Shown here piece by piece: positions 20,855 to 37,965 of a stretch of 44,647 nt of DNA. The position numbers were made by a program, and so were the translations under genes. The stretch's first letter is position 1, and every line of letters starts with the position of its first letter. Where the stretch lies: sequence record SRR20825006_1977; one strand, 5' to 3'. The notes under the pieces were generated by a model. The model did no database searches. It saw only the letters and a program-made list of their open reading frames with translations, and had not been told where the DNA came from.

Positions 20855-20958
20855 AGAGCATAATGGGAGTATAGGCGATCAATCGTGCGCAATGTTAATT
20901 CACTGTTAGATTTTGATCACCTTTATGTACGAATCGAGCTAGGAAAACGTCTATATAG

Positions 20959-20966
20959 TACCTTTG
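20959..20966 (+). promoter_or_regulatory. Bacteroidota -7 box for the PKD protein gene
   Basis: TACCTTTG 20 nt before ATG 20987. Confidence 0.6.
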
Positions 20967-20986
20967 TTAAACAACTTTACGATACT

Positions 20987-23900
20987 ATGCGTTACTACCT
21001 TTTCGTGCTCGCAATTGTCATGGGACAATTGGCTTTCTCTCAGGCTCCAATAGCAAACTTTACTGCTTCACCGTTGGTGGTCTGCATAGGAAGTCCAATA
21101 AATTTCACAAATACATCAACAGCTGGTGGTTCACCAATCGTTAGTAGAACATGGGATTTTGGAGATGGAAACTCTTCAACAGCAATTAATCCAAGTCACA
21201 CATACACTGCACCCGGAACCTATACAGTCACACTAGTGGTTACTGCACAAAACGGGCAGGCAGATGCGGAAGTAAAACCTGCTTATGTGGTTGTGAATCC
21301 TCTACCTACAGTTGGTTTCACTCTGTCAGGAAGTGGATGTACAGTTCCGTTTAACGTTACGTTTACCAATACTTCCTCTTCTGGAGCAAATATCTCCAAT
21401 AATTGGAACTTCGGAAATGGACAAACATCAACGGCTGCTAATCCGCCAGCGGTAACATATTCTACCGCAGGTAATTATACGGTTACTTTAACAGTAACAA
21501 ATACAACAACAGGGTGCGTGAATACGATGTCTCAGCCCATTACGGTATCGAACTTTTCTGCAGGAATTAGTGCGCCAACGTCGGCATGTGTTGGGCAATC
21601 AGTGAGTTTAACCGATGTATCGACAGTAGGAGCCAACAGCTGGAATTGGAATTTTGGTGACGGTCAAACATCAACTTCGCAAAATCCTAATCATACATAT
21701 TCAACTCCTGGAACCTATACAATTACACTGGCGTCGCAAAATACTGGCTCTGGATGTAGCGGTAACGCCACCCAAACTATTACAATTAATCCATTACCTA
21801 CGCCGTCATTTACAGCGAATGTAACTACAGGATGTGCGCCATTATCTGTCAACTTTACAAATACTTCTGGCGCAGGGACGTTTAACTGGGATTTTGGAAA
21901 TGGAAATACGTTTACTGGGCAAAATCCTCCAGCTCAAGTATATACAACAAACGGAAGTTATAACGTGACGCTCACCATGACGAACGCGAATGGATGTGTT
22001 GCAACAATCACAAATACAGCGATGATTAATGTGGTTGCGCCAGTAGTTCAGTTTTCAATGAACAACTACAACGGTTGTGCGCCAGTTTCGGTTCAATTTA
22101 CAGATGGATCTGTTTCACCCAACCCAGGTGCTGATCCACTCGTTTCTTGGGTCTGGGATTTTGGAGATGGAACTCCTGTTTTTAATGGACAAGTTCCGCC
22201 AGTGCATTTATATAATAATGTTGGATTGTATTCTCCAACTCTTACGGTTACAACACAAAATGGATGCGTTGCAAGCATGACTTATCCTGATACTATCCAA
22301 GTTGGGTCTATCAATAATGTTGCTTTTACGGTTAGTCCAATTTCTGATTGTGCAAAAAGCCCATTTGATTTTGTAGATCAAACGACGTTCAACGGAACTC
22401 CAAATCCAGGAGAAGTAATTTATAGTTGGAATTTTGGAGATGGAGGTCAGAGCACACAGCAAAGCCCTACGTATAATTATCCTATCGATACAGGTTATTT
22501 CGACGTAACACTTATTGTTGACTGGAGAGGATGTCTTGATACATTTGTAATGACCAATGCGGTTTATATTCTTGCTCCAATTTCTTCGTTTTCACTTTCA
22601 AGTTCTTTGTTTTGTAACCCCGCTTCGTTTCCAGTGACTTTAGATGTTTCTGATTTAGCGATTGTAGGTTCCGTTCCTGATGATATTTTAATGGTTTGGG
22701 AATGGGGTGATGGAACAACAACCGTATTGGATGATCCAGACGTTGACGATTTAGACGCAGGGAATAGCTCACATGACTACTCAAATTATGGAACTTATAC
22801 GGTAGAACAGGTGATCTACAATTATACAACGGGTTGTGAGGATAGTACTACCCAAACAATTCATATTTCTCAGACTATTGCGGGATTTGCGCTTTCAAAT
22901 GATTCTGTTTGCGTTGGAAGTCCGCTTACATTAACAAGTACTTCAACTTCTACTCACCCATTTGGAACATTCTCATACAATATGGGGAATGGAGGAACAA
23001 CAAGTGGGACTCCAGCGTCATATACGTATCCAACTTCTGGAGCATATAATATTACACTAACCGCAACAAACAGTGTTGGGTGTTCAGGAACATCAATCTT
23101 CAATGGGTTAGATGCGCTTGCACGACCAATTGCAGCAATTACTCCTTCCGCAGTGGCTGGTTGTGCCCCGATAACGGTGAACTATACAAATGCATCTTCT
23201 TCAACGGGGAATGGAGTTCCTCTGGCAAGTTTCTTGTGGACGTTCCCAAATCAAACGACACAAACAACTACAAGCGTTGGAACACCAACATCGTTTACAT
23301 TTAATAACCAAGGATCTTTCACAACTTCGTTAGTCGCGACAGATCAGTTTGGGTGTGTTTCAGATCCAACTTCAGTGAATATGACGATCACAAAACCAAC
23401 AGCTGATTTCACACTTGATTCTGTGGTATGTGATGAAGAAGTATTTACAGCTGTAAATGGCAGTGTTGGCGGTACAAGCTATCAATGGCTTTTGGATGGA
23501 CAAAATGTTTCTGTGAATACCGATTATACGTCGTCGATTAATGATCAAGGAGGACCTGGGATAAATTCTCAAACTCACTTGGTTCAATTGGTGGTAACAG
23601 ATGTGAATGGATGCCAAGATTCAGAGACGCAATCTTTGATCGTTTCGCTTCCTTTTGCAGATATTGATTATACGCTTACAGGGGCAAGCACAAATGCACA
23701 AGGAGAATTTACATGTCCACCAGTTTTTGCTTCTTTCACAGACAATAGTAATACCTACGGAGGAATATCTAGTTGGGCATGGGATTTTGGAGACGGTAAG
23801 TTCTCTACTTTGCAAGATCCAAACAATACGTATGTGTTTGCTGGCACTTACACACTCAATTTTTCAATTGTAGATGAGTTTGGCTGTACGGCCGATACAA

Positions 23901-24727
23901 TACTTCCTGATTTCTTGACCATTTTAGGGCCGAGTGGAAATGTAGCGTGGAATTCAGTTGCTGGGGTTTGCGGTCAAACATTCGACTTCATTCCTTCGAA
24001 CTTAAATGATGTTGCGAATATTATTTGGAATTTGGGGGATGGAACAATTGTGAATGACACGAACTCGTTCCTCTACGGTTACGAATCAAATGATGTCTTT
24101 AATCCTTCTGCGATTTTGGTTGATACAACTGGATGCGAAGTGTTAATCCCTTTACCGCAAATAGTAATTACGGGAAGTGGGTTAGACGCATTCTTTCAAG
24201 CGTCACCTACATCTGGGCCAATTGGAACTCAATTTGTGTTCGATGAATCTTCAACGAGTGTAAATGCGCCAATTGTAATTTGGGATTGGAATTTAAATGG
24301 AACTCTTATTTCAAATAATAGTGGTCAGGATGTTTCTTCGGCATTCGCTGGAATTCCAGGGACATATAATGTTGAGTTGAAAATAACAGATGCCGATGGT
24401 TGTAAAGACAAATATGCATTAGCTGTGACTATCAACGATGAGTTTCACTTGCCGAACATTATCACAATGAATGGAGACGGGATTAATGATTTATTTACAT
24501 TCCCACTTCCAATTTTCAAGTCGTTCGACATGGTGATTTTGAATCGTTGGGGAAATGTGGTACATAAAGAATTGGGTGGGGTTGGAACCTTCTCTTGGGA
24601 TGGAACTGCGCCAGATGGAACTCCAGTGAACGATGGTGTTTACTTTTACCAACTAACGGGAATCATTTCCAGTGGAACAGAAATTGTTAAACACGGAAAT
24701 GTAACGGTGGTGAGCACAACGAATTAA
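20987..24727 (+). CDS. Multi-PKD-domain surface protein with T9SS type B (gliding-motility-associated) C-terminal domain
   Basis: Signal peptide MRYYLFVLAIVMGQLAFS; about 13 WxFGDG-type or degenerate repeats; C-terminal PNIITMNGDGINDLF...NRWG...WDGT...DGVYFY...GNVTVV. Confidence 0.93.
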   Translation: MRYYLFVLAIVMGQLAFSQAPIANFTASPLVVCIGSPINFTNTSTAGGSPIVSRTWDFGDGNSSTAINPSHTYTAPGTYTVTLVVTAQNGQADAEVKPAYVVVNPLPTVGFTLSGSGCTVPFNVTFTNTSSSGANISNNWNFGNGQTSTAANPPAVTYSTAGNYTVTLTVTNTTTGCVNTMSQPITVSNFSAGISAPTSACVGQSVSLTDVSTVGANSWNWNFGDGQTSTSQNPNHTYSTPGTYTITLASQNTGSGCSGNATQTITINPLPTPSFTANVTTGCAPLSVNFTNTSGAGTFNWDFGNGNTFTGQNPPAQVYTTNGSYNVTLTMTNANGCVATITNTAMINVVAPVVQFSMNNYNGCAPVSVQFTDGSVSPNPGADPLVSWVWDFGDGTPVFNGQVPPVHLYNNVGLYSPTLTVTTQNGCVASMTYPDTIQVGSINNVAFTVSPISDCAKSPFDFVDQTTFNGTPNPGEVIYSWNFGDGGQSTQQSPTYNYPIDTGYFDVTLIVDWRGCLDTFVMTNAVYILAPISSFSLSSSLFCNPASFPVTLDVSDLAIVGSVPDDILMVWEWGDGTTTVLDDPDVDDLDAGNSSHDYSNYGTYTVEQVIYNYTTGCEDSTTQTIHISQTIAGFALSNDSVCVGSPLTLTSTSTSTHPFGTFSYNMGNGGTTSGTPASYTYPTSGAYNITLTATNSVGCSGTSIFNGLDALARPIAAITPSAVAGCAPITVNYTNASSSTGNGVPLASFLWTFPNQTTQTTTSVGTPTSFTFNNQGSFTTSLVATDQFGCVSDPTSVNMTITKPTADFTLDSVVCDEEVFTAVNGSVGGTSYQWLLDGQNVSVNTDYTSSINDQGGPGINSQTHLVQLVVTDVNGCQDSETQSLIVSLPFADIDYTLTGASTNAQGEFTCPPVFASFTDNSNTYGGISSWAWDFGDGKFSTLQDPNNTYVFAGTYTLNFSIVDEFGCTADTILPDFLTILGPSGNVAWNSVAGVCGQTFDFIPSNLNDVANIIWNLGDGTIVNDTNSFLYGYESNDVFNPSAILVDTTGCEVLIPLPQIVITGSGLDAFFQASPTSGPIGTQFVFDESSTSVNAPIVIWDWNLNGTLISNNSGQDVSSAFAGIPGTYNVELKITDADGCKDKYALAVTINDEFHLPNIITMNGDGINDLFTFPLPIFKSFDMVILNRWGNVVHKELGGVGTFSWDGTAPDGTPVNDGVYFYQLTGIISSGTEIVKHGNVTVVSTTN

Positions 24728-24731
24728 GGGA

Positions 24732-25151
24732 TCACTTTTCGAGGGTGAGTGTATGGACACAGTTTAAGCTGTCGACAAAGAGAATTTTAAGGTCGGACTT
24801 TGAAATAAACAAAATCTCATAGTTGAGATGAGGTGTCGTTGTCCCATTTCCATTGGTTTCATGGAGATCGAATTTAACAATATCCCTTACCTTATAGGTT
24901 CCTGTCTCAACGCGCGTTAGGTTTATTTTTGGGTGCGTAAGTGTTAAGCCAATAGAATAGGTAGCTGAAGTTGAATTGTTTTCAAAGAAAAATTTCCCTT
25001 CAAATTCTGGGTAATAGTTGAAGCCTTGGTTGTCAGTGAACTTGTAGTATACAATTTTCCACGTGCCGGGTAAATTCTTTTGAATAGATTTTTCCTTAGT
25101 ACAACTCGCAAGAAGAATCGCGATAAAAGCTATGTGAACAAGCTTATTCAA
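24732..25151 (-). CDS. Hypothetical lipoprotein, lipocalin-like fold likely
   Basis: Lipobox LLASC; LPGTWK and ETGTY motifs typical of Bacteroidota lipocalin-like lipoproteins. Confidence 0.7.
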   Translation of the reverse strand: MNKLVHIAFIAILLASCTKEKSIQKNLPGTWKIVYYKFTDNQGFNYYPEFEGKFFFENNSTSATYSIGLTLTHPKINLTRVETGTYKVRDIVKFDLHETNGNGTTTPHLNYEILFISKSDLKILFVDSLNCVHTLTLEK

Positions 25152-25758
25152 ATTTAATAATGAGTTTTTTCTCGGTCGGCATCATCTTTCGAAATATTTT
25201 CTCAGCGTTTTTCTCCGCTCTCTCGTCCAGTTTGAGCACTTTGGAATCATTTTTTAATGCCAATTTCGCTTTCATTTCAAGACGCTTTCGTGTGCCATCT
25301 GGCCACGTTCCAATCTCTTCGAAGATTTCAGTTTTAGAGGGTGTCACTTCGATGTCCAGAATTTCAGCTTTAGGCAAGGTAAGCCAGATAGAATCCTGAT
25401 TGCTTTCAATAAAATAGTTCCCCGAAGTTAAATCAAGTCCGTATCGAACATTTCCATGAACAATGAGTGTTAGTCGTCGCTTGATGTTTCGGTAATACGC
25501 AGCAAAGGGCTGTTCGAGTACACTCGGAGAATCACTGTAATATTCGACAGTATCCATTACCACTTCATCGGAATAAATAATTGTACTAATCTCAGCGATG
25601 GTTTTTATCGCTTCAATGCGCATTCCTGTGTCTTCGATTAGCAATTCTTCCTCACCGCTGCCAGAAAACCATCGGTAGATAAAATAACCAGCTGTTGCTA
25701 TCAGGGCAATAATCAAGAGGTTTTTCAACAAGCGAATAAACTCAGCGGATTTCTTCAT
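25144..25758 (-). CDS. DUF4230-like protein with N-terminal TM anchor
   Basis: IKTIAEIST, LIVHGNVRYGLDL, LTLPKAEIL, AEKNAEK. Confidence 0.8.
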   Translation of the reverse strand: MKKSAEFIRLLKNLLIIALIATAGYFIYRWFSGSGEEELLIEDTGMRIEAIKTIAEISTIIYSDEVVMDTVEYYSDSPSVLEQPFAAYYRNIKRRLTLIVHGNVRYGLDLTSGNYFIESNQDSIWLTLPKAEILDIEVTPSKTEIFEEIGTWPDGTRKRLEMKAKLALKNDSKVLKLDERAEKNAEKIFRKMMPTEKKLIIKFE

Positions 25759-26311
25759 TCTTCTTGTGTTTTACGATTACTTCCTCGAATCCCATGCTGC
25801 TGTAAAACTCTTTCAAGTATTTTCGAGCATCTCGTTCCGCGTCTTTTAGAATATTCGTTTCCTTTAAATCTTCGCGAATTGCTTTTTCTCCTTGTCTCAG
25901 GAAATTGTTTTTGTCCTTTTGTGTAAAACGGTCTCGAAATCCAGTAATACTTTCCATTTCGGTGCGGACCATTTTGGGATCCATGGTAAATGTGGTAATC
26001 TCAGCTGGTGGTAACGTGATTTCGATGGAGTTTCCGCTGACAACAATATCACCATCGGATAATTTTGATAAATCGACACCTGCTTTCACTTTTGCTTTGC
26101 AGCTAATGAGGATTTTTCGTTCACCATATTTATACCATTCTTCGGGTGGGTCATCGAGCTTGACGATTTTACCAATCGTATATTCAGTAGTAGAAAGAAC
26201 GCCAATATCTCTGATTTCGTAGAGGTCTAGTTTGGGTAGTTCTTTTTCATCACTTCCGCAACTCGCAAGAAGCACGCTGACAACTAAAAAGAAGAATGCA
26301 TGTTTGAGCAT
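25742..26311 (-). CDS. DUF4230-like lipoprotein
   Basis: Lipobox LLASC; IGVLSTTEY, KAKVKAGVDLSKL, ITLPPAEI, ILKDAERDA, MGFEEV. Confidence 0.85.
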   Translation of the reverse strand: MLKHAFFFLVVSVLLASCGSDEKELPKLDLYEIRDIGVLSTTEYTIGKIVKLDDPPEEWYKYGERKILISCKAKVKAGVDLSKLSDGDIVVSGNSIEITLPPAEITTFTMDPKMVRTEMESITGFRDRFTQKDKNNFLRQGEKAIREDLKETNILKDAERDARKYLKEFYSSMGFEEVIVKHKKNEEIR

Positions 26312-26319
26312 AGTTAAAA

Positions 26320-27510
26320 TTACGAAAATGGAGCCAAGCTCATCATTTGTATACCAATTTTTAACGATTCAGGATCAATGTCAAAATTAGGGTGATGTAC
26401 TCCGTACACAATTCCTTTCTCCTCGTTGCGAACTCCAAGTCGGAAGAAACAAACGGGTACTTCTTGTGAGTAATAAGAGAAATCTTCAGCAGTGAGGCGA
26501 ATCGGAAGTTCCTCTACCTTTTGTTCTCCGAGAAATTCTGTTGAGATAATTCTCATTCGTTGAGTAGTAAGAGGGTCATTTTCTAAATATGGATATCCCT
26601 TACTAATTTCAACGTCCACAGATCCTCCTGAGGCCGCAGCAATTTGTTCTGAAGTCTCTTTAATAAGTCTGAGTGCTTCCGCTCTCCACGGCTCATTCAT
26701 CGTTCTGAATGTTCCTTTTAAAAATGCTTTTGAAGGAATCACATTTGTTGCTCCTAAAGCTTCGAAGTGACCAAAAGAGAGTACACATGGAATCTTAGGA
26801 TCGCATTTCCGGCTCACGATTTGTTGAAGCGTAGTTAAAATATTCGCTCCAATCATAATGGGATCAATGCAGTTATGCGGAGTTGCTCCGTGACCGCCTT
26901 TTCCGTTTATTGTCAAGTAAATTTCATCGCAGGAAGCCATATAAATTCCTTCTTTGAATCCAACATTTCCTACGTTCATATCAGGAAAGACGTGAAGCGC
27001 AAACATCCGTTCAACGCTAGGGTTCGTCAAAACCCCATCTCGAATCATATAGGTTGCTCCCCCTGGATTTTTTTCTTCTCCGGGCTGAAAAACCAACTTT
27101 ACAGGCTGTGGAAGTTGATTTCTTATTTCATATAAAAGTTCCGCCGCGCCAAGTAATACCGAAGTATGTACGTCATGTCCGCAAGCGTGCATAATTCCTT
27201 CGTTCGTAGACTTATATGGAACGTCATTTTCTTCTTGAATGGGAAGTGCATCTAGATCTGCTCTGAGTCCAATACACGGTTGATTTTCGGTGTGATGATC
27301 TCCTCGAATAATCCCTACAACACCCGTTCCTCCAACGCCCGTTTCGTGAGGAATTCCAATTTCTTCAAGGGTATTTGAAACAAATTTCATCGTTTCAAAT
27401 TCTTGGTACGAAAGCTCTGGATGTGCATGAAGGTGTTCCCTATAAGCTTGAACTTTTCCCTGCAATTCTTCTGAACGCTTTGAGATATGTTCTTTTAAAT
27501 CGCTATTCAT
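26320..27510 (-). CDS. M20D-family amidohydrolase
   Basis: HLHAHPELSYQE, LRADLDALPI, MHACGHDVH, FQPGEE, GKGGHGA, AEDFSYY, HHPNFDID. Confidence 0.95.
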   Translation of the reverse strand: MNSDLKEHISKRSEELQGKVQAYREHLHAHPELSYQEFETMKFVSNTLEEIGIPHETGVGGTGVVGIIRGDHHTENQPCIGLRADLDALPIQEENDVPYKSTNEGIMHACGHDVHTSVLLGAAELLYEIRNQLPQPVKLVFQPGEEKNPGGATYMIRDGVLTNPSVERMFALHVFPDMNVGNVGFKEGIYMASCDEIYLTINGKGGHGATPHNCIDPIMIGANILTTLQQIVSRKCDPKIPCVLSFGHFEALGATNVIPSKAFLKGTFRTMNEPWRAEALRLIKETSEQIAAASGGSVDVEISKGYPYLENDPLTTQRMRIISTEFLGEQKVEELPIRLTAEDFSYYSQEVPVCFFRLGVRNEEKGIVYGVHHPNFDIDPESLKIGIQMMSLAPFS

Positions 27511-27892
27511 TGGGAAGAGAATTAAATCCTGAAATAACCATTCGAACAGAGACGTACGCCATGATTACACCAAAAATGATCTTCACAATAGATGGAGAAA
27601 TCTTAAGAGCAAGTTTAGAGCCGATATAGCCACCGGCCACAAAGGTAAGCGCCACGACCAATCCGAATTGCCAATTTATATGGCCAGATTTGTAGTAATT
27701 CATTACCGCAAGAATTCCAACAGGAAGTAAGAGGATAAATAAACTTGTTCCTTGTGCTTCGTATTGTGACATACTTAAAGCGTACATCAGCGCGGGGACA
27801 ATCACTACACCGCCGCCCACTCCAACAAAACCACTAAGAATACCGGCTAGAATTCCGATAAGCGCTAATATGAGAATGGTTTGAATTGTCAT
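27503..27892 (-). CDS. TauE/SafE (TSUP) family membrane protein, half-size
   Basis: GILSGFVGVGGGVVIVPAL, AQGTSL, GGYIGSKLA; TACCTTTG box at 27900-27907 supports ATG 27892. Confidence 0.88.
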   Translation of the reverse strand: MTIQTILILALIGILAGILSGFVGVGGGVVIVPALMYALSMSQYEAQGTSLFILLLPVGILAVMNYYKSGHINWQFGLVVALTFVAGGYIGSKLALKISPSIVKIIFGVIMAYVSVRMVISGFNSLPNE

Positions 27893-27919
27893 TGTACTCC
27901 AAAGGTAATAAATGTAGAG

Positions 27920-27962
27920 AATAAAAGAAGGTGAAGACGCGTTTTCGAAGGGCTTCACCTTC
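27920..27962 (-). terminator. Intrinsic terminator closing the MscS/CCC operon
   Basis: GAAGGTGAAG (27927-27936) / CTTCACCTTC (27953-27962), followed by TTTTATT on the minus strand. Confidence 0.75.
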
Positions 27963-27992
27963 AAGCTCATTTTACTCAGTAATTGTTTCCTA

Positions 27993-30218
27993 CTAATCTA
28001 TCCCGAAATTTTTAACTGTTGTACTGTTTACATAGAGTACACTTGCTAAGTTGACAAAGTCTGAGGCGTTGGACATTAATTCTGCTTCAACATTACGTTC
28101 ATCGAAACCAATCATTAACAAATCAGCATCTTTCGAATGAAGTTGAATGAGCGCATTTCGATCATCTCGCTTGCTGTATTTCAGGTACTTAACATTTGTT
28201 TTTGAAATTGGAATCCGCCCTGTGAAAATGAGTTCATCAAAGACCGCTTTTTCTTCCTCGTACTGATCTTCGTCCAATGTAACGTAAACCTTTGCTTCTC
28301 CTCGTTTCCAATCGTTATTTCCAAGAATGATGTAACTGAGTACGATCATCATTTGAGCATTATTTAACTGATCAGGATCGATCCAAATGTGAATGTCGTT
28401 CATTATCCCAAATCCTTTTGCAGATGTTGAGAGAACACAAATGTCGTGCTCATCTGAGCGCATCAAAGGATAATTTTCTACGATTTTCGCGGGTTGTTCC
28501 TCGTTTCCTCGCTCAAAATCCAGAAGAATCATGTTGTTGTCTTTTCCAGAAACTCCAGGGAGTTGAAGAACCTGAACGAGCGATCCAGTATAACTAGGGG
28601 CAATAATTGTATCAAGATAAAAATTGCTTTTGGAGACATTTGCAATTCGAATCATGCGTTTTAATGTTTCTTTGGCTTCCGTTGCGGTTTTCACATTAAA
28701 TTCATCTTTGGTCCAGTGGACATAACTTCCAAAACCATGCTTTCGCGTGATCCATTTCATCATTTGAAAACTGGAATTCTGTTTGAAAGTTTGGTCAGAG
28801 AATGCAACGAGTGAAGGTCGCCACGTTTCGTTGATTTGATCCTTTTCTGTTTTCTGAAGGAAGACCTGAATGGATCGGCTAAATTGGAAAATAACTCCTT
28901 GGAAAATTCCTGCAATTCCTTGTTTTTCTCCCTTCGTTTTTGAACTTAGATAATAATAAATGGCAACCATTAATGACAGGGCGAGAATTGCATACATGGT
29001 GTTCATTTTAAACATCATGTAAAAACACATGATTCCACCAAATAATGAAATATACCAGCGCGATCGGAAGGTTGGGCGATAAGAAGGGTCTCCAGAAAAA
29101 TGTTGGAAGAAGGAAATTAAACAGAGCGATCCGTACGTCACCATAAAGAACATGGAAATGATTTCAGCCACAAAGTTTACGTCTCCGATTCCCACGAAAA
29201 TAATCGCAATTACCATCGTTACTAAACTTGCGGAGAACGGTTCGTTATTTTTGCCTTTTCCTTTGGATAGGAAACGATTCATTTTTGCATTCGGAAATAC
29301 TTTGTCTTTTCCAAGTGCTTGAAGGGTTCTTGGAGCAACCAAATAGGAGCCGAGCGCGCTAGAAAATGTTGCAGCAGCCAGTCCTATAGGAATTATTGGT
29401 CCCCATGAAGCGATGTTACTCATCACAAGTTCATTCCCAACAAGATCACCTGTACCAGCAGAAACAGCCAGTTTTAGTGCAATAAATACGTAGATAATCA
29501 TCCCAGCGATAGTAGCGATCAACGTTCCTTTTGGAATAGAAACACTTGGGTCTTTGAGATCGCCTGACAAGCCTACACCAGCTGTCATACCCGTAAAAGC
29601 AGGAAAACAAATGGCGAAAACGAGAAAGAAAGACTCTCCATCTGGTGTTACGCGTGTAAGTGTTTCATACGTCATTCCTTGCCAGTCACCTTGTCCAGTG
29701 AAAAACATCACTAGGGAGATAAAAAGAATAACGACAACGACATACAAGGCTTTCATTCCCACATTTGCTCCTTTGGTAAGAATAAGAAGAGTGAGAAGCC
29801 CAAGACACGGTAGAGTGACCAAGCGCGTATCGGGAAGGACGAATTGATAAGTTACTTCGAGCCATTCGAGGAGAGGTTCAAATGAAACTCCCATTGCTAC
29901 AATGTAGAACGCGACTGAAATGGCTTGTGAGAGGTAAAGAGAGATTCCAATTGCTGATCCTATGGTAAGGCCGAACGAGCGACTAATGATGAAATATTCT
30001 CCACCGCCTTCCACTTTTTGATTGGTAGAGATTTCGGCGATTGCCATTGCGGTTGGTATAGTCACTAAATGCCCAAGTACAATAATTCCAAGAGTTCCTA
30101 AAAATCCAACATTCCCAACAGCATAGCCAAAACGGAGGAACATGATTGCTCCAAGAATCGTTGAAATGGCCGTTAGGAACACGGGCATTGTACCAAATTT
30201 TTTAATCGCGGTAGACAT
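27993..30218 (-). CDS. SLC12/cation-chloride cotransporter (CCC) family transporter, APC superfamily
   Basis: ILGAIMFLRFG, ISTNQKVEGGGEYFIISRSFG, FPAFTGMTAGVGLSGDLKDPSVSIPKGT, YRPTFR, WRPSL and a large cytoplasmic C-terminal domain parallel NKCC/KCC motifs. Confidence 0.88.
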   Translation of the reverse strand: MSTAIKKFGTMPVFLTAISTILGAIMFLRFGYAVGNVGFLGTLGIIVLGHLVTIPTAMAIAEISTNQKVEGGGEYFIISRSFGLTIGSAIGISLYLSQAISVAFYIVAMGVSFEPLLEWLEVTYQFVLPDTRLVTLPCLGLLTLLILTKGANVGMKALYVVVVILFISLVMFFTGQGDWQGMTYETLTRVTPDGESFFLVFAICFPAFTGMTAGVGLSGDLKDPSVSIPKGTLIATIAGMIIYVFIALKLAVSAGTGDLVGNELVMSNIASWGPIIPIGLAAATFSSALGSYLVAPRTLQALGKDKVFPNAKMNRFLSKGKGKNNEPFSASLVTMVIAIIFVGIGDVNFVAEIISMFFMVTYGSLCLISFFQHFSGDPSYRPTFRSRWYISLFGGIMCFYMMFKMNTMYAILALSLMVAIYYYLSSKTKGEKQGIAGIFQGVIFQFSRSIQVFLQKTEKDQINETWRPSLVAFSDQTFKQNSSFQMMKWITRKHGFGSYVHWTKDEFNVKTATEAKETLKRMIRIANVSKSNFYLDTIIAPSYTGSLVQVLQLPGVSGKDNNMILLDFERGNEEQPAKIVENYPLMRSDEHDICVLSTSAKGFGIMNDIHIWIDPDQLNNAQMMIVLSYIILGNNDWKRGEAKVYVTLDEDQYEEEKAVFDELIFTGRIPISKTNVKYLKYSKRDDRNALIQLHSKDADLLMIGFDERNVEAELMSNASDFVNLASVLYVNSTTVKNFGID

Positions 30219-30224
30219 ATTTAA

Positions 30225-31046
30225 TTACGAGTTTTTAATATGGATATCTCGTTGAGGAAATGGAATCGAAATCCCATTTTCTTTTAGGCTGTCGTAAATT
30301 CTAAAGCGAAGATCACTTTTGATATTGTCAATTCGGAACGACTGCTGTGACCAGAAAATAAGTTCAAAATTGATTGAAGAATCACCAAACTCTTTGAATC
30401 GAACGAATGGTTTAGGTTCATTTTCGATCGGTTCCATGCCTTGCATGCATCTTTGTAGAATACTTTCTACGACTCGTGCATCTGAACCGTAGGCTACACC
30501 TATGTCGAGAAAAAATCTTACGCTGTCGTGATTCGCGCTCCAGTTCACCACTTTTTCAGAGACGAATTTCGAGTTAGGTACTATCACTACTACATTGTCG
30601 CGAGTGAGAATTTGACTGTTTCTAAGGTTGATTTCTTCCACGCGTCCTATAATTCCATCCACCTCGATAATTTCGCCAACCTTAATTGTTCCTTCAACGA
30701 GTAAGAAAATTCCAGACATGAAATCGGAGAAAATGTTTTGAAGACCTAGTCCAATTCCCACTAACAAAGCGGCTGAACCAGCTAGCAGAATTTGGACTTT
30801 AAATCCAAGAACTTCAATGGCTGCAATAACAGAGATGACGAGAATGAAATACTTAATGAGCAAAAAGATTGAATGTCTTCGTCTTTCTTCCGTTTTGTCT
30901 CCGCGAAATCTAGGTTGTTCTATAAGTCGCTTAAAAACGGCAATCACAACAATTGTTGCTAGGACCACTATTGAAAGCGCAATAACATTGGAAACTTTTA
31001 AACTGTACTTTCCAAAGTGAAAAATTTCCCAATCAATCCATTCCAT
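30225..31046 (-). CDS. Small-conductance mechanosensitive channel (MscS family)
   Basis: LLVGIGLGLQNIFSDFMSGIFLL, IKVGEIIEV, VIVPNSKF, IGVAYGSD, FGDSSINF, ISIPFPQRDIHI. Confidence 0.95.
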   Translation of the reverse strand: MEWIDWEIFHFGKYSLKVSNVIALSIVVLATIVVIAVFKRLIEQPRFRGDKTEERRRHSIFLLIKYFILVISVIAAIEVLGFKVQILLAGSAALLVGIGLGLQNIFSDFMSGIFLLVEGTIKVGEIIEVDGIIGRVEEINLRNSQILTRDNVVVIVPNSKFVSEKVVNWSANHDSVRFFLDIGVAYGSDARVVESILQRCMQGMEPIENEPKPFVRFKEFGDSSINFELIFWSQQSFRIDNIKSDLRFRIYDSLKENGISIPFPQRDIHIKNS

Positions 31047-31058
31047 AATGCTTTCTTT

Positions 31059-31886
31059 TTATGATTCTTTGTGTTTCACAATTTTGTATGACGCAGCGTA
31101 AAATTCACTCGCAGGGATAACATGGAATTCATTTTCTGATTGAATGACCACAGACGTTTTTGAGATCCTCTCGATTACCCCTGAGATTTCACCATAAAAA
31201 ACATGATCTCCTTGCTGAAGTATACCGCGATTATAGTAATTTTTAAGCAGATCACCCACAACTTCTTTAGCTCCCCACCCAAATGAGATCGCAAAAGTAA
31301 GGGCTAACGCACCGATTATTATGTAGAGTTGTGTGCTGATTACTGAAATGTTTACACCAGCTTGAGAAATAGCTGTTAACGAAACAATAAGAAGTAAAAA
31401 GTAGAATAGAACATCACCTAAAATACGTCCGATACCAATTTTCATAGTCTTGGTGACCTGTTTTATCGCGTCTCTAATGAATGCAGCGATCGTATATCCA
31501 AGGGCAAAAATGAGCATTGCGCTTAGAATTCTTGGGATGTAGTGAATGAATACAGAGATTTCTTTTGATACATTGTGCCAACCGAACGTTTCAGACGCCG
31601 CAACGATGGCAAAAAGGAAGATTAGCCAATAAACAATCTTGGAGATAATTAATGGGAGATTGATATCGTATGCATATTTTTCTGAAATCGAGCTCAAGGA
31701 GAAAGCCTTTGAAATCTTACTGCTTTTTGAGCGTTCAAGGAGTCTGTAAATTAATTTAGAAACAAGTTTGGCGATCAACCAACCTCCAATTAAAATTAAT
31801 AAACCGATTAGTAACGTTGGTAGAATCTCAACTGATTCATTCCATAATGCATCAAATGCATGTTTTAAATCTTCACGGGTTCTCAT
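31059..31886 (-). CDS. TM-helix-repeat MscS-superfamily protein (CmpX-like)
   Basis: Repeated LPTLLIGLLILIGGWLIAK / IPRILSAMLIFALGYTIA, FAISFGWGAKEVV, short MscS beta domain GDHV...GVIERI, no C-terminal cage domain. Confidence 0.82.
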   Translation of the reverse strand: MRTREDLKHAFDALWNESVEILPTLLIGLLILIGGWLIAKLVSKLIYRLLERSKSSKISKAFSLSSISEKYAYDINLPLIISKIVYWLIFLFAIVAASETFGWHNVSKEISVFIHYIPRILSAMLIFALGYTIAAFIRDAIKQVTKTMKIGIGRILGDVLFYFLLLIVSLTAISQAGVNISVISTQLYIIIGALALTFAISFGWGAKEVVGDLLKNYYNRGILQQGDHVFYGEISGVIERISKTSVVIQSENEFHVIPASEFYAASYKIVKHKES

Positions 31887-32083
31887 TCTTCTTTGTTTTT
31901 AGAATTAGTGGAATTCTTGGAGAGTGTTTGCCCTAGGTCTTTTGATACTAAAGGAATTTTTTTTCCGAAAAGATCACCAAATTCTTTGGCAAGCAAATAA
32001 AGATTCGCTGCATTGAGTAACTTGTCTTTACTCTGTGCAGGAACTTCACGTTCATTTAGCTTTTTGGAAAAAAAATCTTTCAT
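31883..32083 (-). CDS. Small hypothetical protein (66 aa)
   Basis: ATGA overlap with the next gene; ATG 21 nt downstream of the ECF-type promoter motif. Confidence 0.75.
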   Translation of the reverse strand: MKDFFSKKLNEREVPAQSKDKLLNAANLYLLAKEFGDLFGKKIPLVSKDLGQTLSKNSTNSKNKEE

Positions 32084-32104
32084 CAAACACTATTCTGTGT
32101 TTCT

Positions 32105-32132
32105 ATGACGCCACAATTTAAATGTAGTCACA
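32105..32132 (-). promoter_or_regulatory. Putative ECF-sigma promoter, copy 1
   Basis: Minus strand TGTGAC-tacatttaaattgtg-GCGTCAT; same boxes and 15-nt spacing as copy 2. Confidence 0.75.
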
Positions 32133-32732
32133 TTAAATAAGGTATAAAATAAGAAACACTGATATTTCCAAGTAGTGGTCGAAGCCTTTATTGTTTAAAG
32201 ATTCTTTCATTTTGTCTCTTGTTCTTACGAGTTTCATTTTAACAGCGCTCAGACCAAGGTCTAATTGATCCGAAATTTCTTGAACTGAGAGTCCTTCCCA
32301 GTAGTGCATCACCAATATCATACGTTCAATTTCACTGAGTTCATCTATGACTCTTTGCAACTGCTTTTTAAGCTCTTCCGACTCGTTAAGTTGGTCGATA
32401 CTTGCGAGTAAATCTTCTGCGTCACCAGAATATTGTTCGGTAAATTCTTCTTTGCGGTGTTTACTTTTCGCACGAAGTATATCCATGCAGTGATTGTAAC
32501 AAATTGTATTTAGCCAAGGTTCAACTTTACTATGCTCCTTGATCGATTGAATTCGGGTAAAGGCCTTCATGAAAATATCTTGAAGAGCATCAGAAGCTAC
32601 GGCTTCGTTCTTCAAGATAAATACACAACGGTTATAGATCTTTTTGCCAAGAATATCATAGAGCTCACCAAGCGCTGAGATGTCTTCGTTGATTAACCGT
32701 TTTGTGAGAGATTCAGAGAGCTCATTCTCCAT
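32133..32732 (-). CDS. ECF-subfamily RNA polymerase sigma factor
   Basis: Region 2 ASDALQDIFMKAF...WLNTICYNHCMDILR; region 4 LSEIERMILVMHYWEGLSVQEIS...SAVKMKLVRTRDKMK. Confidence 0.93.
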   Translation of the reverse strand: MENELSESLTKRLINEDISALGELYDILGKKIYNRCVFILKNEAVASDALQDIFMKAFTRIQSIKEHSKVEPWLNTICYNHCMDILRAKSKHRKEEFTEQYSGDAEDLLASIDQLNESEELKKQLQRVIDELSEIERMILVMHYWEGLSVQEISDQLDLGLSAVKMKLVRTRDKMKESLNNKGFDHYLEISVFLILYLI

Positions 32733-32774
32733 ATTCAGAGACTTATGTTGAATTTATAACGACCTTTTGAGAAT

Positions 32775-32782
32775 CAAATGTA
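32775..32782 (-). promoter_or_regulatory. Housekeeping -7 box upstream of the ECF sigma gene
   Basis: Minus strand TACATTTG. Confidence 0.5.
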
Positions 32783-32816
32783 CAAATTCCTTTTGTCAAT
32801 GAATAGAACAGATTTT

Positions 32817-33638
32817 CTATCGTTGAGTGTTTAACTGGCTCATTTTCTGGCGGTAATTTTTTATCTCCGCTGCCTCAGATGAACGTTGAGATTCGAGTGT
32901 CTCTATTTTTTGAATTTCTTCCTTGAGTTCCAAGGAGTTTTTTTCAATCTCAGTTAGATATTCTTTTTCTTTCTGCTCTTCTTCGGCTATTTCTTCCTGA
33001 AGTTCTTTAAGTTTCTCAAGAAGTGAAGCCTGTTTTTCTTTAGAGCGATCTACCTTTGTAGTGTACTTGGACTCTGTTTTAATGAGCTTAGCCTTTGAAT
33101 CATTCAGTTTGCCGAGTGATTTAGTGGTCTTTTTTAGATCACTTTCTTTTTGATCAATCATCTCAACGTAGTAAATGTTGCAGTAATCTACAACGAAACC
33201 TTTTAAATAAGATGTCACGTTATCCGATTCTTTCTGATAATTAGTCGAATTAACGAAAACATCTGTCCCGAAACTCATCCAAAGTCGTAATCGCTGCCCT
33301 TCCGAAGCTTCAACAAGTTCTATGTAAATGCTAAAGTGCTTATCGCTCAAGGAGGTATTGAGTTCTTCAGATGCTGATAGTTGGTTTCCTCTTGAACTTA
33401 GTTTGATGGCGTATTTAGCTTTAAAATCTTTTCGAAGCTTTTTTAGAATCTCTTTCGTGTCGCCTTCGATTGGAGCGTCATAACCGTTGCGCATTACACT
33501 TTCTAAAGGGTACATTCCCTCAGAAACAGTGATAGTTGTTTGGCTATATGCAGACTGGCTTGAAATTACGAGTGGTAAGATCAAAATAATCATCGTGCGA
33601 TAAACGATGTTTACAAGATAGTGTAGAGATGTGTTCAT
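32817..33638 (-). CDS. Exported hypothetical protein with long C-terminal coiled coil
   Basis: Signal-like segment ending SQSAYS-Q, alpha/beta N-terminal part, E/K-rich heptad C-terminal half; ATG 33638 chosen because the track's GTG 33692 lies inside the promoter motif (ATG 33593 also possible). Confidence 0.8.
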   Translation of the reverse strand: MNTSLHYLVNIVYRTMIILILPLVISSQSAYSQTTITVSEGMYPLESVMRNGYDAPIEGDTKEILKKLRKDFKAKYAIKLSSRGNQLSASEELNTSLSDKHFSIYIELVEASEGQRLRLWMSFGTDVFVNSTNYQKESDNVTSYLKGFVVDYCNIYYVEMIDQKESDLKKTTKSLGKLNDSKAKLIKTESKYTTKVDRSKEKQASLLEKLKELQEEIAEEEQKEKEYLTEIEKNSLELKEEIQKIETLESQRSSEAAEIKNYRQKMSQLNTQR

Positions 33639-33665
33639 TTTGTCAATATTATATGTTTCACTAAA

Positions 33666-33693
33666 ATGACGCTGAGAAATCAACTTGGTCACA
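33666..33693 (-). promoter_or_regulatory. Putative ECF-sigma promoter, copy 2
   Basis: Minus strand TGTGAC-caagttgatttctca-GCGTCAT. Confidence 0.75.
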
Positions 33694-33755
33694 AATTATT
33701 TGAGTTTTATTCTGACTAAAGTCGATTTTTGAGATCAATTAGGTTGGATGATTCG

Positions 33756-34985
33756 CTATCTTTTAGAAATCTGCTGGAGAGTTTTATCTATGGAATTTTT
33801 TGAAGTTGCCGTTACTCCCTCATTTTCTGCGTATGAACTCCAATTACTGATCACGGATTTTGTTTCCTGAATTATTTGACTCGCTGAACTTATCGAAAAG
33901 TGTTCGGCGAGTTCCATAAGTTCTCTAGTGCCTGGATTGTCATAATTTTGCGAGCATGATGTGCTGTGCATTCCCTGAGAGGAAGAGGAAAACGTAAGGT
34001 CGTATGCTGGAGCGAAAGTCCATTCACCGTCTGAATTCATTAGAAAGGCAAAATTCTTGGAATGATCATCTCGGTTATGCGCAAAGACATTAAAAACCGC
34101 TCTTCTGAAGAGTTGTTCGGTAACTTTTGCATGATTGAAGAGTTCGGATCCTTGATTGATGAGGTGTCCATAATCAAGTTGACTGTGTTCATAATCATCG
34201 TGAAAATATCCAGCTGCTGAAATCATGTGAATGCGATTGTTTCCTACCCTGTCAAAGCGTTTTGTTCCGAAGTATTGTTTCCCAGATTCACCTGTAAATA
34301 ATTTGGACGGAGAGACTTCAAGTCCTGCATCTTGCGCCATTTTCCAATACGCCATTTCGATATTTGCGATATCTAGGTTGTCAACATTCGCTGCAAATTT
34401 CACAATCCAATGCTCGAAGCCTTCTGGCAACTCACTTTGATCGGTAATTAGGGCATTGGTTGTGGGATTGTATCCTGCATATACCTTTGGGCGTGCACCT
34501 CCAGGACTTCCTCCTTGGATGAACAAATTATCTACGACTTCAGTGCTTTCTCCTGAAAAGATTTCTTGAATGTGATCTTCAAAGAGGTCTAAGTTTATCT
34601 CACTGCTTTCGTATTCTTCATCAACGCTCGGGCGGTACTTGAGTGCGCCCAAACCATTGCTGTTCACATAGGAAAGTAGATCTAACGCATTTAAGGATTC
34701 GATAGCAGTTCCTTGATGGCTCAAATGTCGCTTCATTACAAGTCGCCCCCATGCGTCGGGAAGTGAATCTGCGAATACTCCAAAAAGTCCACGGAAAGCA
34801 TAGTTCGCAGGACCTTTTTGAATACTATCATCGAATCTCAATTTTATTGGAGAAAGGTTGTGACCTGTTTTGAGATAATCTTCGCTGTATTTAAAAAGAA
34901 TCTCCTTGCCGTCCAAAACAAGTTGTCCAACTAGCTGTTCTTCTTTCGAGAAACAAATAAATATGTTCACCTTCGAGATTCCCAT
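33756..34985 (-). CDS. hipA: HipA-family kinase toxin (type II TA)
   Basis: FADSLPDAWG, P-loop GGSPGGARPK, WIVKF, KRFDR, catalytic HNRDDHSKNF, FAPAYDL. Confidence 0.93.
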   Translation of the reverse strand: MGISKVNIFICFSKEEQLVGQLVLDGKEILFKYSEDYLKTGHNLSPIKLRFDDSIQKGPANYAFRGLFGVFADSLPDAWGRLVMKRHLSHQGTAIESLNALDLLSYVNSNGLGALKYRPSVDEEYESSEINLDLFEDHIQEIFSGESTEVVDNLFIQGGSPGGARPKVYAGYNPTTNALITDQSELPEGFEHWIVKFAANVDNLDIANIEMAYWKMAQDAGLEVSPSKLFTGESGKQYFGTKRFDRVGNNRIHMISAAGYFHDDYEHSQLDYGHLINQGSELFNHAKVTEQLFRRAVFNVFAHNRDDHSKNFAFLMNSDGEWTFAPAYDLTFSSSSQGMHSTSCSQNYDNPGTRELMELAEHFSISSASQIIQETKSVISNWSSYAENEGVTATSKNSIDKTLQQISKR

Positions 34986-34987
34986 TG

Positions 34988-35257
34988 TTATACGTCAAAA
35001 AGTGTTTGTTTGTCATTAAGGTCAGGTGGACGCAGTAGGTGTTCGAAATCTTCCAATCGATTCAGTACTTGAGCTAATTTAAGTAAAGATTCTAAGGAGA
35101 TTTTTCCGGTAGATTCGAATTTTCGGATACTGGAATAGGAAACACCAGATCGTTCTGCGAGTTCTTCGCGAGACAATTTCAATTGCTTTCTGAGTTGCCG
35201 AGTGTTTTCAGCGATCAGCAGGATTGTTTCTTTTGGTGTAAACTTGGCTCCGTACAT
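34988..35257 (-). CDS. XRE-family HTH regulator, probable HipB-like antitoxin
   Basis: RQLRKQLKLSREELAERSGVSYSSIRKFESTGKISLESLLKLA; 2 nt upstream of hipA. Confidence 0.9.
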   Translation of the reverse strand: MYGAKFTPKETILLIAENTRQLRKQLKLSREELAERSGVSYSSIRKFESTGKISLESLLKLAQVLNRLEDFEHLLRPPDLNDKQTLFDV

Positions 35258-36324: not shown

Positions 36325-37965
36325 TTAAAAGAGCATCCCCGCAATTACTGCCGTAGACATACATGCGAGTGTTCCTGCAAGCAGTGCCTTCATTCCAAAT
36401 TTTGCCAAAGTCGATTTTACCTCAGGGGCAAGAGCGCCAATACCACCAACTTGAATCCCGATGGAGGCAAAGTTCGCAAATCCACAAAGAACGTAAGTAC
36501 ACATTAAAGACGCTTTGTCGGACATGGAGTGTTGTAGGTTTCCGAGATTGATGTATGCTACGAACTCATTGAGAATCGTTTTTTCTCCAAGAAGTTGACC
36601 TACGGTCATTGCATCTTCCCAAGGAACTCCCATAATCCAGGCGAAAGGAGAAAGTATATATCCTAAAATTGCTTGAAAGGAAAGAGCAGGGTAGTGGCCC
36701 CAACCGGCAATAACGTCATTCAGGGTGGTAATATCTCCAAATTTGAATAGGATGTAGTTCGCTAATTGAACAAGTGAAATAAAGACAATTAGCATTGCTC
36801 CAACGTTTACGGCAAGTTTCAAACCATCTGTTGTTCCGTTGGCGATTGCTTCGAGTGCATTTCCTCCAAGTTTCTCTTTTGATACAGCAAGATCTTCGTT
36901 GATTTTTTCCTTTTCGGGGAATAAGAGTTTTGCAAAAACAATCGCAGCAGGTGCGCTCATCAAAGATGCCGTGAGAAGGTGCTTCGCGAAGTAAACTTTC
37001 TGAGTGTCATCCTCTCCTCCTAAAAATCCGATATAGGAAGCTAGTACACCTCCAGCGATAGTGGCCATTCCTCCTGCCATCAGGCATAGGATTTCCGATT
37101 TTGTCATTTTGCCTAAGTATGGCTTAACGAGCAACGGGGCTTCTGTCTGTCCTAAAAAAACATTTCCTGCAACAGAAACACTTTCTGCTCCGGATAGTCC
37201 AAGTATACGTTTCATTAGCCATGCCATTCCATGCACGACGCGTTGAAGAATTCCCCAATAATAAAGTAAGCTAGTGAGCGCTGAGAAGAAAATAACCGAA
37301 GGAAGGATCCATGTTGCGAAATTACGTACGTAGCCATTAACTTCTCCTGTTAGGAAATCGCCAAAAACAAACTCCGCACCGTAGTGCGCCATGTCTACTA
37401 CCTTTACGAAAGCTTTCGACAGAAAGTCAAATACTCCTTCTACGAAGGGAACTTTGAGGATTAATAAAGCGAGTACCACTTGAAGAAGCATTCCCTTAAC
37501 TACCAAAGACCAGTTGATCGATTTTCGGTCGGCGCTGAATAGATAGCCGATAAATATTAACGCAGCCATCCCCAGAAGTCCTCGTGAAATGCCTGAAAAA
37601 ATATAATATTCTTCCTTTTCACTATTTCTAAAGGTTACTGACTTTGCGGCTCCTTTAAAAGAAACTCTGTGAGTATTGGAGTAAATGACGTGAAGGGTGT
37701 CTGTCTTTTGGATGGAATCTTGAATGATTCCAGATATAATAATCGATTTGCCTTTTTGTTTCCATGTACCTGTTTTTAGTGGGGTCAGTATGGAGTCGTT
37801 GATAACGAAATGATTATTCTTTTGGAAGAGAACAGTGGATTTTCCGTTGGATAACGTTTTGCCCGTTGCAATTCCTGCAAATGAATGATTAGAAAAAGTA
37901 AGGCTTAGAAGAATACTAAGCGCTACGACGATTGATTTCGTCCCTGATTTTTGAAGCAAGTTCAT
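36325..37965 (-). CDS. NupC/CNT-family nucleoside transporter with N-terminal soluble extension
   Basis: GNVFLGQTEAPL, GGMATIAGGV, MSAPAA, LGEKTILNEFVAY, LCGFANFASIGIQVGG; start uncertain (ATG 37965 or 37974, TTG 38004), all overlapping the upstream gene. Confidence 0.92.
   Translation of the reverse strand: MNLLQKSGTKSIVVALSILLSLTFSNHSFAGIATGKTLSNGKSTVLFQKNNHFVINDSILTPLKTGTWKQKGKSIIISGIIQDSIQKTDTLHVIYSNTHRVSFKGAAKSVTFRNSEKEEYYIFSGISRGLLGMAALIFIGYLFSADRKSINWSLVVKGMLLQVVLALLILKVPFVEGVFDFLSKAFVKVVDMAHYGAEFVFGDFLTGEVNGYVRNFATWILPSVIFFSALTSLLYYWGILQRVVHGMAWLMKRILGLSGAESVSVAGNVFLGQTEAPLLVKPYLGKMTKSEILCLMAGGMATIAGGVLASYIGFLGGEDDTQKVYFAKHLLTASLMSAPAAIVFAKLLFPEKEKINEDLAVSKEKLGGNALEAIANGTTDGLKLAVNVGAMLIVFISLVQLANYILFKFGDITTLNDVIAGWGHYPALSFQAILGYILSPFAWIMGVPWEDAMTVGQLLGEKTILNEFVAYINLGNLQHSMSDKASLMCTYVLCGFANFASIGIQVGGIGALAPEVKSTLAKFGMKALLAGTLACMSTAVIAGMLF

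Follow-up and report, generated by a model that had tools for sequence, protein, structure and literature searches.

The stretch of DNA analysed here, 44,647 nucleotides from sequence record SRR20825006_1977 (hereafter the window), carries on its minus strand six co-oriented open reading frames (ORFs) that fill the interval 27993-33692 and include the gene of an extracytoplasmic function (ECF) sigma factor. In the order of transcription, they encode an exported coiled-coil protein (32817-33692), the ECF sigma factor (32133-32732; 199 aa), a small soluble protein (31883-32086), a transmembrane (TM)-repeat, MscS-like protein that we call CmpX-like (31059-31886; 275 aa), an MscS protein (30225-31046; 273 aa) and an SLC12-like protein (27993-30218; 741 aa). 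The coiled-coil ORF as listed is open from GTG 33692 and has 291 aa, or 273 aa from the likelier ATG 33638, and the small ORF, listed with 67 aa, has 66 aa when counted from ATG 32083. The coiled-coil and sigma genes are separated by 84 nt and the sigma and small genes by 49 nt, followed by a 4-nt overlap (-4) between the stop of the small gene and the start of the CmpX-like gene, a gap of 12 nt between the CmpX-like and MscS genes and a gap of 6 nt between the MscS and SLC12-like genes. Directly 3' of the SLC12-like gene, a Rho-independent terminator closes the operon (27920-27962, minus strand), with a perfect 10-bp stem (GAAGGTGAAG/CTTCACCTTC) that was seen in both the minimum free energy and centroid folds, a 16-nt loop and a TTTTATT tail. 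Because the downstream TauE-like ORF probably starts at ATG 27892, this hairpin is regarded as intergenic. The generic terminator scanner overlooked it, probably because the scan permits loops of only 3-8 nt; in the window, the generic scans were at chance level for sigma-70 promoters (19 versus 17.8 expected) and near chance for terminators (7 versus 5.2 expected), and an Rfam search returned no riboswitch or other RNA family, with no tRNAs found. Based on the three short spacings and the single terminator, we argue that the genes from the small protein to the SLC12-like protein form one transcript.

Related loci were collected with a profile of 21 closer CmpX-like sequences, which yielded at least eight loci, two of them close and six distant, and 12 window proteins were compared with all ORFs of the eight loci by BLASTP, complemented by direct ORF inspection. 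The close loci come from a Putridiphycobacter metagenome-assembled genome (L001; CmpX-like protein 54% identical), with the order sigma, small, CmpX-like and coiled-coil and no MscS or SLC12 gene within 10 kb, and from Lishizhenia tianjinensis (L002; 49% identical), with the order sigma, small, CmpX-like and MscS and no SLC12 or coiled-coil gene within 10 kb. Among the matches listed, both close genomes (2/2) retain the sigma factor, small protein and CmpX-like protein as a trio in unchanged order; MscS is kept in 1/2, the coiled-coil protein in 1/2 and the SLC12-like protein in 0/2. The Lishizhenia MscS orthologue is 64% identical to that of the window and occupies the same position directly after the CmpX-like gene. 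The small and CmpX-like genes adjoin each other in all three genomes, with the 4-nt overlap in the window and boundary coordinates of 10017/9956 in Lishizhenia and 9998/10001 in Putridiphycobacter. The gene content of the two relatives indicates that the trio is the conserved unit, to which the MscS, coiled-coil and SLC12-like genes are variable additions. The six distant loci (L003-L008), in which the CmpX-like protein is 21-28% identical, contained no homologue of the ECF sigma, MscS, SLC12 or coiled-coil proteins (0/6, BLASTP E ≤ 1e-3); with a sigma factor in none of them, they were set aside as uninformative on the module. The window belongs to a Flavobacteriales bacterium, its nearest loci being those of Putridiphycobacter and Lishizhenia; among the SLC12 homologues, one with 70% identity is labelled Crocinitomicaceae by its source.

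A motif of the ECF promoter type, TGTGAC-N16-CGTC, was found twice in the window, both times on the minus strand (0.10 matches expected; two matches in 0/100 shuffles). The first site, P1 (TTGTGACC-N14-GCGTCAT; 33666-33694, motif 33693-33668), lies ahead of the coiled-coil gene, and the second, P2 (ATGTGACT-N14-GCGTCAT; 32105-32133, motif 32132-32107), lies directly after the sigma stop codon and before the small gene. The motif also precedes the small gene (9751-9776) and the coiled-coil gene (10870-10895) of Putridiphycobacter and the sigma gene of Lishizhenia (9043-9068), giving five instances in three genomes (two, two and one, respectively), all on the coding strand and all 22-110 nt upstream of the start of a module gene. 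P1 shows 0 mismatches to the five-site consensus TTGTGACC-N14-GCGTCAT, and a search of the window for this consensus with up to three mismatches returned only P1 and P2. Since P1 occupies 33693-33668, the coiled-coil gene is taken to start at ATG 33638 and not at the upstream GTG. P1 probably drives the coiled-coil gene, with read-through that would include the sigma gene, and P2 is the putative promoter of a four-gene operon encoding the small, CmpX-like, MscS and SLC12-like proteins. The same motif stands before the coiled-coil orthologue in Putridiphycobacter, indicating that the coiled-coil protein is a genuine conserved target, though its gene is placed differently there. In Lishizhenia, the sigma gene is predicted to be directly autoregulated through the motif upstream of it; for the window, autoregulation would depend on read-through over the 84-nt gap, and in Putridiphycobacter the motif is absent ahead of the sigma gene. 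An earlier note on this DNA had described six co-oriented genes of these kinds, the last four of them tightly coupled and ending at one terminator, as well as two matching ECF-type promoters, and this description is borne out by the ORF coordinates and family matches, the measured spacings (-4, +12 and +6 nt), the hairpin at 27962-27920 and the twofold occurrence of the motif.

Two further elements upstream of the sigma gene were considered. GGAAT...TCGTT was dropped as a promoter, its spacer being 23 nt long and the consensus search having returned only the two sites above. The element TACATTTG (32775-32782, minus strand), which precedes the sigma start by 42 nt, fits TAnnTTTG, which we take to be the -7 box of the Bacteroidetes housekeeping consensus, and would then mean a basal sigma promoter independent of P1.

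The sigma factor matches Sigma70_r2 (PF04542; region 2 at residues 25-90 by Pfam) and Sigma70_r4_2 (PF08281), thus possessing regions 2 and 4 only, and scores 85.5 bits against TIGR02937 (cut-off 42.9), which places it among the ECF (group IV) sigma-70 factors. None of the finer NCBIfam models reached its cut-off, the best being NF058625 with 103.3 bits against 130. The orthologues in Putridiphycobacter (9145-9744) and Lishizhenia (9179-9802) share 52% and 46% identity with it by BLASTP (52% and 44% in alignment A4). All three orthologous sigmas end in a hydrophobic C-terminal tail of approximately 12-14 residues (e.g. LEISVFLILYLI; residues 187-199 in the window, 32133-32171), which falls short of the length of an ordinary TM helix and is not part of the interface predicted below for the small protein. 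This tail might serve for docking to the membrane or to the channel.

No Pfam or NCBIfam family (E ≤ 0.01) and no hydrophobic or TM segment was found in the 66-aa protein, and a small soluble protein of 64-68 aa is present in 3/3 genomes. Two relatives were matched in a collection of 5.8 billion proteins, and another collection of 1.84 billion gave 16 representatives at E ≤ 0.001; its look-alikes in the Atlas are unnamed Bacteroidota proteins of 64-70 aa. When the sigma factor and the small protein were modelled as a complex, a mark of 0.69 was obtained in each of three runs, compared to 0.02 for the best control; this mark was attained by 51/78 solved complexes and by 2/108 mismatched pairs. 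The three runs agreed in at least 87% of contacts, with a predicted local distance difference test (pLDDT) value of at least 59 for the small partner. In the predicted interface, sigma residues 16-59 are in contact with small-protein residues 8-30, which places it at the beginning of region 2, a usual target surface of anti-sigma factors. Because it is predicted to bind region 2, the 66-aa protein is likely an anti-sigma factor, and we regard it as a candidate analogue of the Pseudomonas protein CfrX (see below). Across the 16 family members, P15, A26, G36, L38 and F39 are near-invariant. P15 and A26 fall in the predicted interface helix, and G36-x-L38-F39 lies outside the interface and possibly forms a second binding surface, hence one for a second partner. 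FecR, zf-HC2 and RskA-type anti-sigma domains were found in none of the six module proteins or four neighbours. The view that the module has no FecR-type or TM anti-sigma gene therefore stands, but it had passed over the soluble 66-aa candidate with its predicted binding to region 2.

Two members of the MscS family are encoded by the operon. The 273-aa protein scores past the cut-offs of PF00924 (75.3 bits) and PF21082 (59.9 bits) and below that of PF21088 (19.8 versus 23.1), and is, judging from these matches, a canonical MscS-type mechanosensitive channel. The 275-aa CmpX-like protein matches the TM-helix repeat PF05552 with 63.7 bits (cut-off 22) and PF00924 weakly (17.1 bits versus 20.2). 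Its family profile matches solved MscS chains with E values of 1.1e-7 to 3e-5; in the best match (E = 1.1e-7), profile positions 111-259 align with Escherichia coli MscS residues 22-167. In the AlphaFold2 (AF2) model (pLDDT 75.3), long helices give way to a small beta domain with strands at 228-270, shortly after which the protein ends (residue 275), and a Foldseek search with this model placed E. coli MscS on top (E = 1.3e-5, approximately 160 columns). No match to PF21082 was found, and neither the C-terminal alpha/beta vestibule domain nor the barrel is present in the model. Thus, as modelled, the CmpX-like protein is an MscS TM1-TM3 core, with the pore-lining TM3, and a beta domain, equipped with extra N-terminal helices and devoid of the cytoplasmic vestibule. 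Compared to E. coli MscS and the MscS-like channels YnaI, YbiO and MscK, the 273-aa protein is a standard MscS, whereas the 275-aa protein has the TM1-TM3 core and beta domain in common with them, adds the PF05552 N-terminal helices and stops after the beta domain.

Relatives of the CmpX-like protein amounted to 32 matches in the 5.8-billion-protein collection, 30 of them metagenomic and 26 at 50-85% identity. In a plasmid collection, tblastn gave ten distant matches, none spanning 80% of the query. The best-covered of these (L009, 4746-7772), on a 1.2-Mb replicon of Pseudoalteromonas sp. NC201, is a 285-aa CmpX-like ORF directly ahead of two ORFs labelled MgtE-like from reading their sequences by eye, with no sigma gene nearby. 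These neighbours recall CmaX, the CorA-like Mg2+ transporter beside cfrX-cmpX in the published excerpts on Pseudomonas used here.

The last gene of the operon encodes a protein of 741 aa that matches AA_permease (E = 2.4e-41) and, as its best specific model, the K-Cl cotransporter model TIGR00930 (305 bits, under the cut-off of 953). All 32 phmmer matches in the PDB were SLC12 proteins, the best being the NKCC1 chain 6npl (E = 2.9e-55), so that the protein has an APC/LeuT-fold core nearest to SLC12 members. Its ion sites were mapped by alignment with full-length human NKCC1, with residue roles taken from the parts of PMC9713717 and PMC7200160 that describe them. The K+ site is represented by the TM3 tyrosine Y105 (Y383 in human NKCC1) and by P206 and T209 in TM6 (P496 and T499, with the motif residue G210 aligned to G500), the Na+ site by A283, S286 and S287 in TM8 (A610, S613 and S614), and the Cl2 site by the TM10 tyrosine Y362 (Y686). 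Of 121 bacterial homologues aligned, 120 or all 121 carry identical residues at these positions. The position of K289, a TM1 lysine that is conserved among Na+-dependent cation-chloride cotransporters according to that part of PMC9713717, is occupied by proline. In K-Cl cotransporters (KCCs), Gly/Ala stands in place of the two TM8 serines, which is held to explain their Na+-independence (PMC7200160, same part). With the Na+, K+ and Cl- ligand residues kept, the site pattern is NKCC-like, and, given the inward Na+ gradient expected in bacteria, we infer that Na+-driven K+/Cl- uptake would be favoured.

The 741-aa protein shares the LeuT-fold core and a cytoplasmic C-terminal domain with NKCC1, NCC, KCC1-4 and the archaeal MaCCC, although MaCCC was not among the PDB sequence matches at E ≤ 0.001. 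Compared to Na+-type SLC12 proteins, it retains the K+ tyrosine, the TM6 P-x-x-T-G, the two TM8 serines and the TM10 Cl2 tyrosine; it differs from eukaryotic SLC12 proteins in lacking the long N-terminal regulatory region, in the replacement of K289 by proline and in its score below the TIGR00930 cut-off. The SLC12-like family is very common in Bacteroidota: among 8000 candidates scored, at least 7957 proteins belong to it at E ≤ 1e-20, and named carriers include Flavobacterium, Mariniflexile, Lutibacter, Polaribacter, Reichenbachiella and Capnocytophaga. Set against the 32 CmpX-like matches, this number indicates that most copies of the transporter lie outside the module. Our literature search found no transport data or functional study for bacterial SLC12 members, and nothing relevant was returned for cation-chloride transporters together with sigma factors or MscS, or for SLC12 together with Flavobacteria and osmoregulation.

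The coiled-coil protein (273 aa) has one N-terminal hydrophobic segment (residues 5-27) and no Pfam family, and shares 30% identity with the Putridiphycobacter ORF at 10918-11712 across 201 aa. Its AF2 model is weak (pLDDT 64.3, mostly below 60 in the N-terminal domain), with a single helix at 131-272, and its look-alikes in the Atlas are unnamed Bacteroidota clusters.

The trio has a counterpart in Pseudomonas aeruginosa, as described in the excerpts of the papers that we draw on. There, the sigma factor SigX (ECF102) adjoins cfrX-cmpX, a SigX-dependent unit (PMC8999054, PMC7641640), in which CfrX, small (84 aa) and soluble, is the putative anti-sigma factor and CmpX an MscS homologue (PMC8999054, PMC7641640, PMC10965496), and a mechanosensing complex has been proposed (same sources). 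Both systems combine an ECF sigma factor, a small soluble protein and an MscS-family membrane protein of approximately 275 aa. In both, known anti-sigma domains are missing from the small protein, whose gene forms one sigma-dependent unit with the channel gene, a unit that in the window is predicted from P2, and a membrane-spanning anti-sigma factor is missing from both according to these excerpts. They differ in the length of the small protein (66 aa in the window versus 84 aa for CfrX), and the window has a clear conserved promoter motif and extra MscS and SLC12 genes; the SigX promoter consensus is reported as not precisely defined (PMC7641640, in the excerpt used), and a term search of PMC3832394 for such a consensus found nothing.

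An association of this kind has also been reported for Bacteroidetes. In the part of the 2021 ECF reclassification drawn on here (PMC7826278), ECF102 is 66% Bacteroidetes, with subgroups s2, s3 and s5, a mechanosensitive channel is conserved beside subgroups s1, s2 and s5, the s2/s5 arrangement is read as 'similar regulation', and ECF102 promoter motifs are stated not to be conserved. Consistent with this trait, the CmpX-like channel gene lies two genes after the sigma gene in the window, in Putridiphycobacter and in Lishizhenia, and both the window and s2/s5 present a Bacteroidetes ECF sigma beside a mechanosensitive channel. The small partner, the promoter motif, the coiled-coil target and the MscS/SLC12 cargo are not mentioned for s2, s3 and s5 in that part of the account. 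PMC7826278 was the only relevant source returned by our literature search for ECF sigma factors with mechanosensitive channels in Bacteroidetes, and on its account the association of the two is already in print.

Based on these data, we propose that the module is probably, though far from certainly, an envelope-stress switch of the SigX/CfrX/CmpX type, whose operon has been extended in this lineage by MscS and an NKCC-type transporter. The 66-aa soluble protein would hold the ECF sigma factor inactive by covering part of region 2, where the complex model predicts it to bind. The truncated MscS paralogue, translationally coupled to the small gene, would most likely sense the state of the membrane, either its tension or its lipid packing, and would control the release of sigma. 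Free sigma would then read TTGTGACC-N14-GCGTCAT promoters, one driving the small, CmpX-like, MscS and SLC12-like genes and the other driving the coiled-coil gene and, by read-through, probably the sigma gene itself. The operon would have gained two effectors in this lineage, a solute-release valve (MscS) and a cotransporter of the Na+/K+/Cl- type, and with these two effectors the output would be an adjustment of ion and solute flux. In this respect, the suggestion of the earlier note that the TM-repeat protein acts as a membrane-tension sensor is reasonable.

Several points weigh against this proposal. The SigX model PRK09640 ranks fifth for the window sigma, with 85.8 bits against a cut-off of 194, so that equivalence to P. 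aeruginosa SigX is not supported; such a low score is expected for a member of another subgroup and does not thereby rule out ECF102 as a whole. The top model, NF058625, describes a different Bacteroidota family and is itself below cut-off, and NCBIfam assigns no group to the window, Putridiphycobacter or Lishizhenia sigmas. The likeness to SigX, CfrX and CmpX is one of layout and published description. The gene order differs, sigma coming first in the window and the order in Pseudomonas being cmaX-cfrX-cmpX-sigX-oprF in the excerpts cited above, and neither an OmpA/OprF domain nor CorA, the context of ECF102 s1, was found among the window ORFs scanned. MscS and SLC12 are missing from one or both relatives, and the synteny itself is based on two close genomes. 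The complex model ran without alignments, part of its 0.69 may reflect likeness to solved complexes between sigma and anti-sigma factors of other families, and 7/44 blind neighbouring gene pairs also pass the test. Finally, we infer the contact of the CmpX-like protein with the small protein and its sensing, and likewise the signal, the transport direction and the substrates.

A more specific form of the proposal, which we consider possible but doubtful, is that the MscS paralogue is dead as a valve and serves as the tension receptor for the small protein, a partner-switching mini anti-sigma factor that would use its N-terminal helix for sigma region 2 and its G-x-L-F motif for the channel, and that sigma, once released, would directly switch on the Na-K-Cl cotransporter together with MscS. 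The main alternative for the CmpX-like protein, rather unlikely in our judgement, is that it is output only, a second mechanosensitive channel, and that a cytoplasmic cue acts on sigma through the small protein alone. The retention of the MscS-type pore helix and beta domain agrees with this alternative, as does the predicted sigma-binding surface, for which the small protein suffices, and in the excerpt of PMC10965496 used here the sensor role of Pseudomonas CmpX is a proposal and overexpression of cmpX left the expression of sigX and cfrX unchanged. However, the small and CmpX-like genes are always adjacent and overlapping in the three genomes, the second motif of the small protein lies outside the sigma interface and suggests a second partner, and the C-terminal vestibule of working MscS channels is missing from the CmpX-like protein.

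It is distinctly improbable that all six genes constitute a dedicated and conserved cell-volume/ion-homeostasis regulon, a new kind of system, as the earlier note had supposed. Such a regulon would fit the co-oriented, tightly packed genes of the window with their two matching promoters and one terminator, and the position of MscS directly after the CmpX-like gene in Lishizhenia. Two pairs of matches also point this way: the CmpX-like match P0006 (61%) and the SLC12 match P0036 (81%) each lie on a single contig of 10,058 bp, and the small-protein match P0034 and the SLC12 match P0035 (94%) have a common longest contig size of 333,173 bp. These are a weak and circumstantial hint that SLC12 is linked to the module in some closer uncultured relatives, equal contig sizes being no proof of adjacency. 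The regulon is contradicted by the synteny described above, in which the trio was kept but the SLC12, MscS and coiled-coil genes were missing within 10 kb from two, one and one of the two close genomes, respectively, and by the abundance of the SLC12-like family compared with the 32 CmpX-like matches and 16 small-protein representatives. Its regulatory core, moreover, has a published counterpart: the SigX-CfrX-CmpX layout and the report of a mechanosensitive channel beside Bacteroidetes ECF102 (PMC7826278, in the part used) tell against calling the system undescribed. The weakest alternative, that the 66-aa protein belongs to the CmpX-like channel as an assembly or accessory subunit and that sigma is under transcriptional control only, draws on the translational coupling to the channel gene, the lack of a match to known anti-sigma domains and the possible housekeeping-type box upstream of sigma (a consensus that we presume), but is very improbable in view of the wide margin between the complex model and its control and of the interface in the first part of region 2, presumably a usual anti-sigma target.

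The surroundings of the module show no comparable conservation, as the flanking HipA, HipB, TauE-like, M20 amidohydrolase, LuxE-like and NupC-like genes recur in none of the eight loci. Directly upstream and co-oriented with the module is a HipA/HipB-like type II toxin-antitoxin pair (33756-35257, minus strand), in which a 409-aa HipA-like kinase (HipA_C, E = 2.9e-45) is joined by an 89-aa HipB-like antitoxin of the HTH_3 type; the pair is missing from Putridiphycobacter and Lishizhenia. On the other side, the TauE/SafE-like ORF (27503-27970, minus strand) matches no more than the latter half of the Pfam model (positions 123-237 of 237); since its listed start overlaps the terminator hairpin, it likely begins at ATG 27892 and encodes a half-size membrane protein of 129 aa. 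Downstream of the M20 amidohydrolase gene, a tandem of overlapping ORFs at 25144-26311 (minus strand) encodes two DUF4230 paralogues of 204 and 189 aa. The NupC-type nucleoside transporter ORF (36325-38004, minus strand) has an N-terminal extension of approximately 140 aa, its Pfam domains beginning at residue 144, and overlaps the upstream bifunctional-nuclease/UVR ORF (37916-38500) by approximately 90 nt; its true start may lie further downstream. Two probable cargo proteins of type IX secretion are encoded on the plus strand, one of 609 aa with Por_Secre_tail (3471-5300) and one of 1280 aa (20885-24727) in which eight PKD repeats are combined with a CHU_C sorting domain, and both fit a Bacteroidota chromosome.

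The predicted co-transcription with MscS, under a putative membrane-stress sigma factor, of an SLC12-like gene whose product has its NKCC-type Na+, K+ and Cl- ligands intact suggests a role in the adjustment of salt and turgor, and the module thereby offers a first functional lead on the abundant SLC12-like family of Bacteroidota. If the more specific form of the proposal holds, it would give first access to the regulation and physiology of prokaryotic SLC12 proteins, as well as a defined promoter and an anti-sigma mechanism for the SigX-type class. Switching of this type is still unsettled in P. aeruginosa, where, according to the excerpt of PMC7641640 used here, the regulatory roles of CfrX and CmpX are only proposals and a promoter consensus has yet to be agreed. 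The Flavobacteriales version is simpler, with three core genes, a sharp motif common to three genomes and a confidently predicted interface, and would thus be a tractable model for SigX-type regulation.

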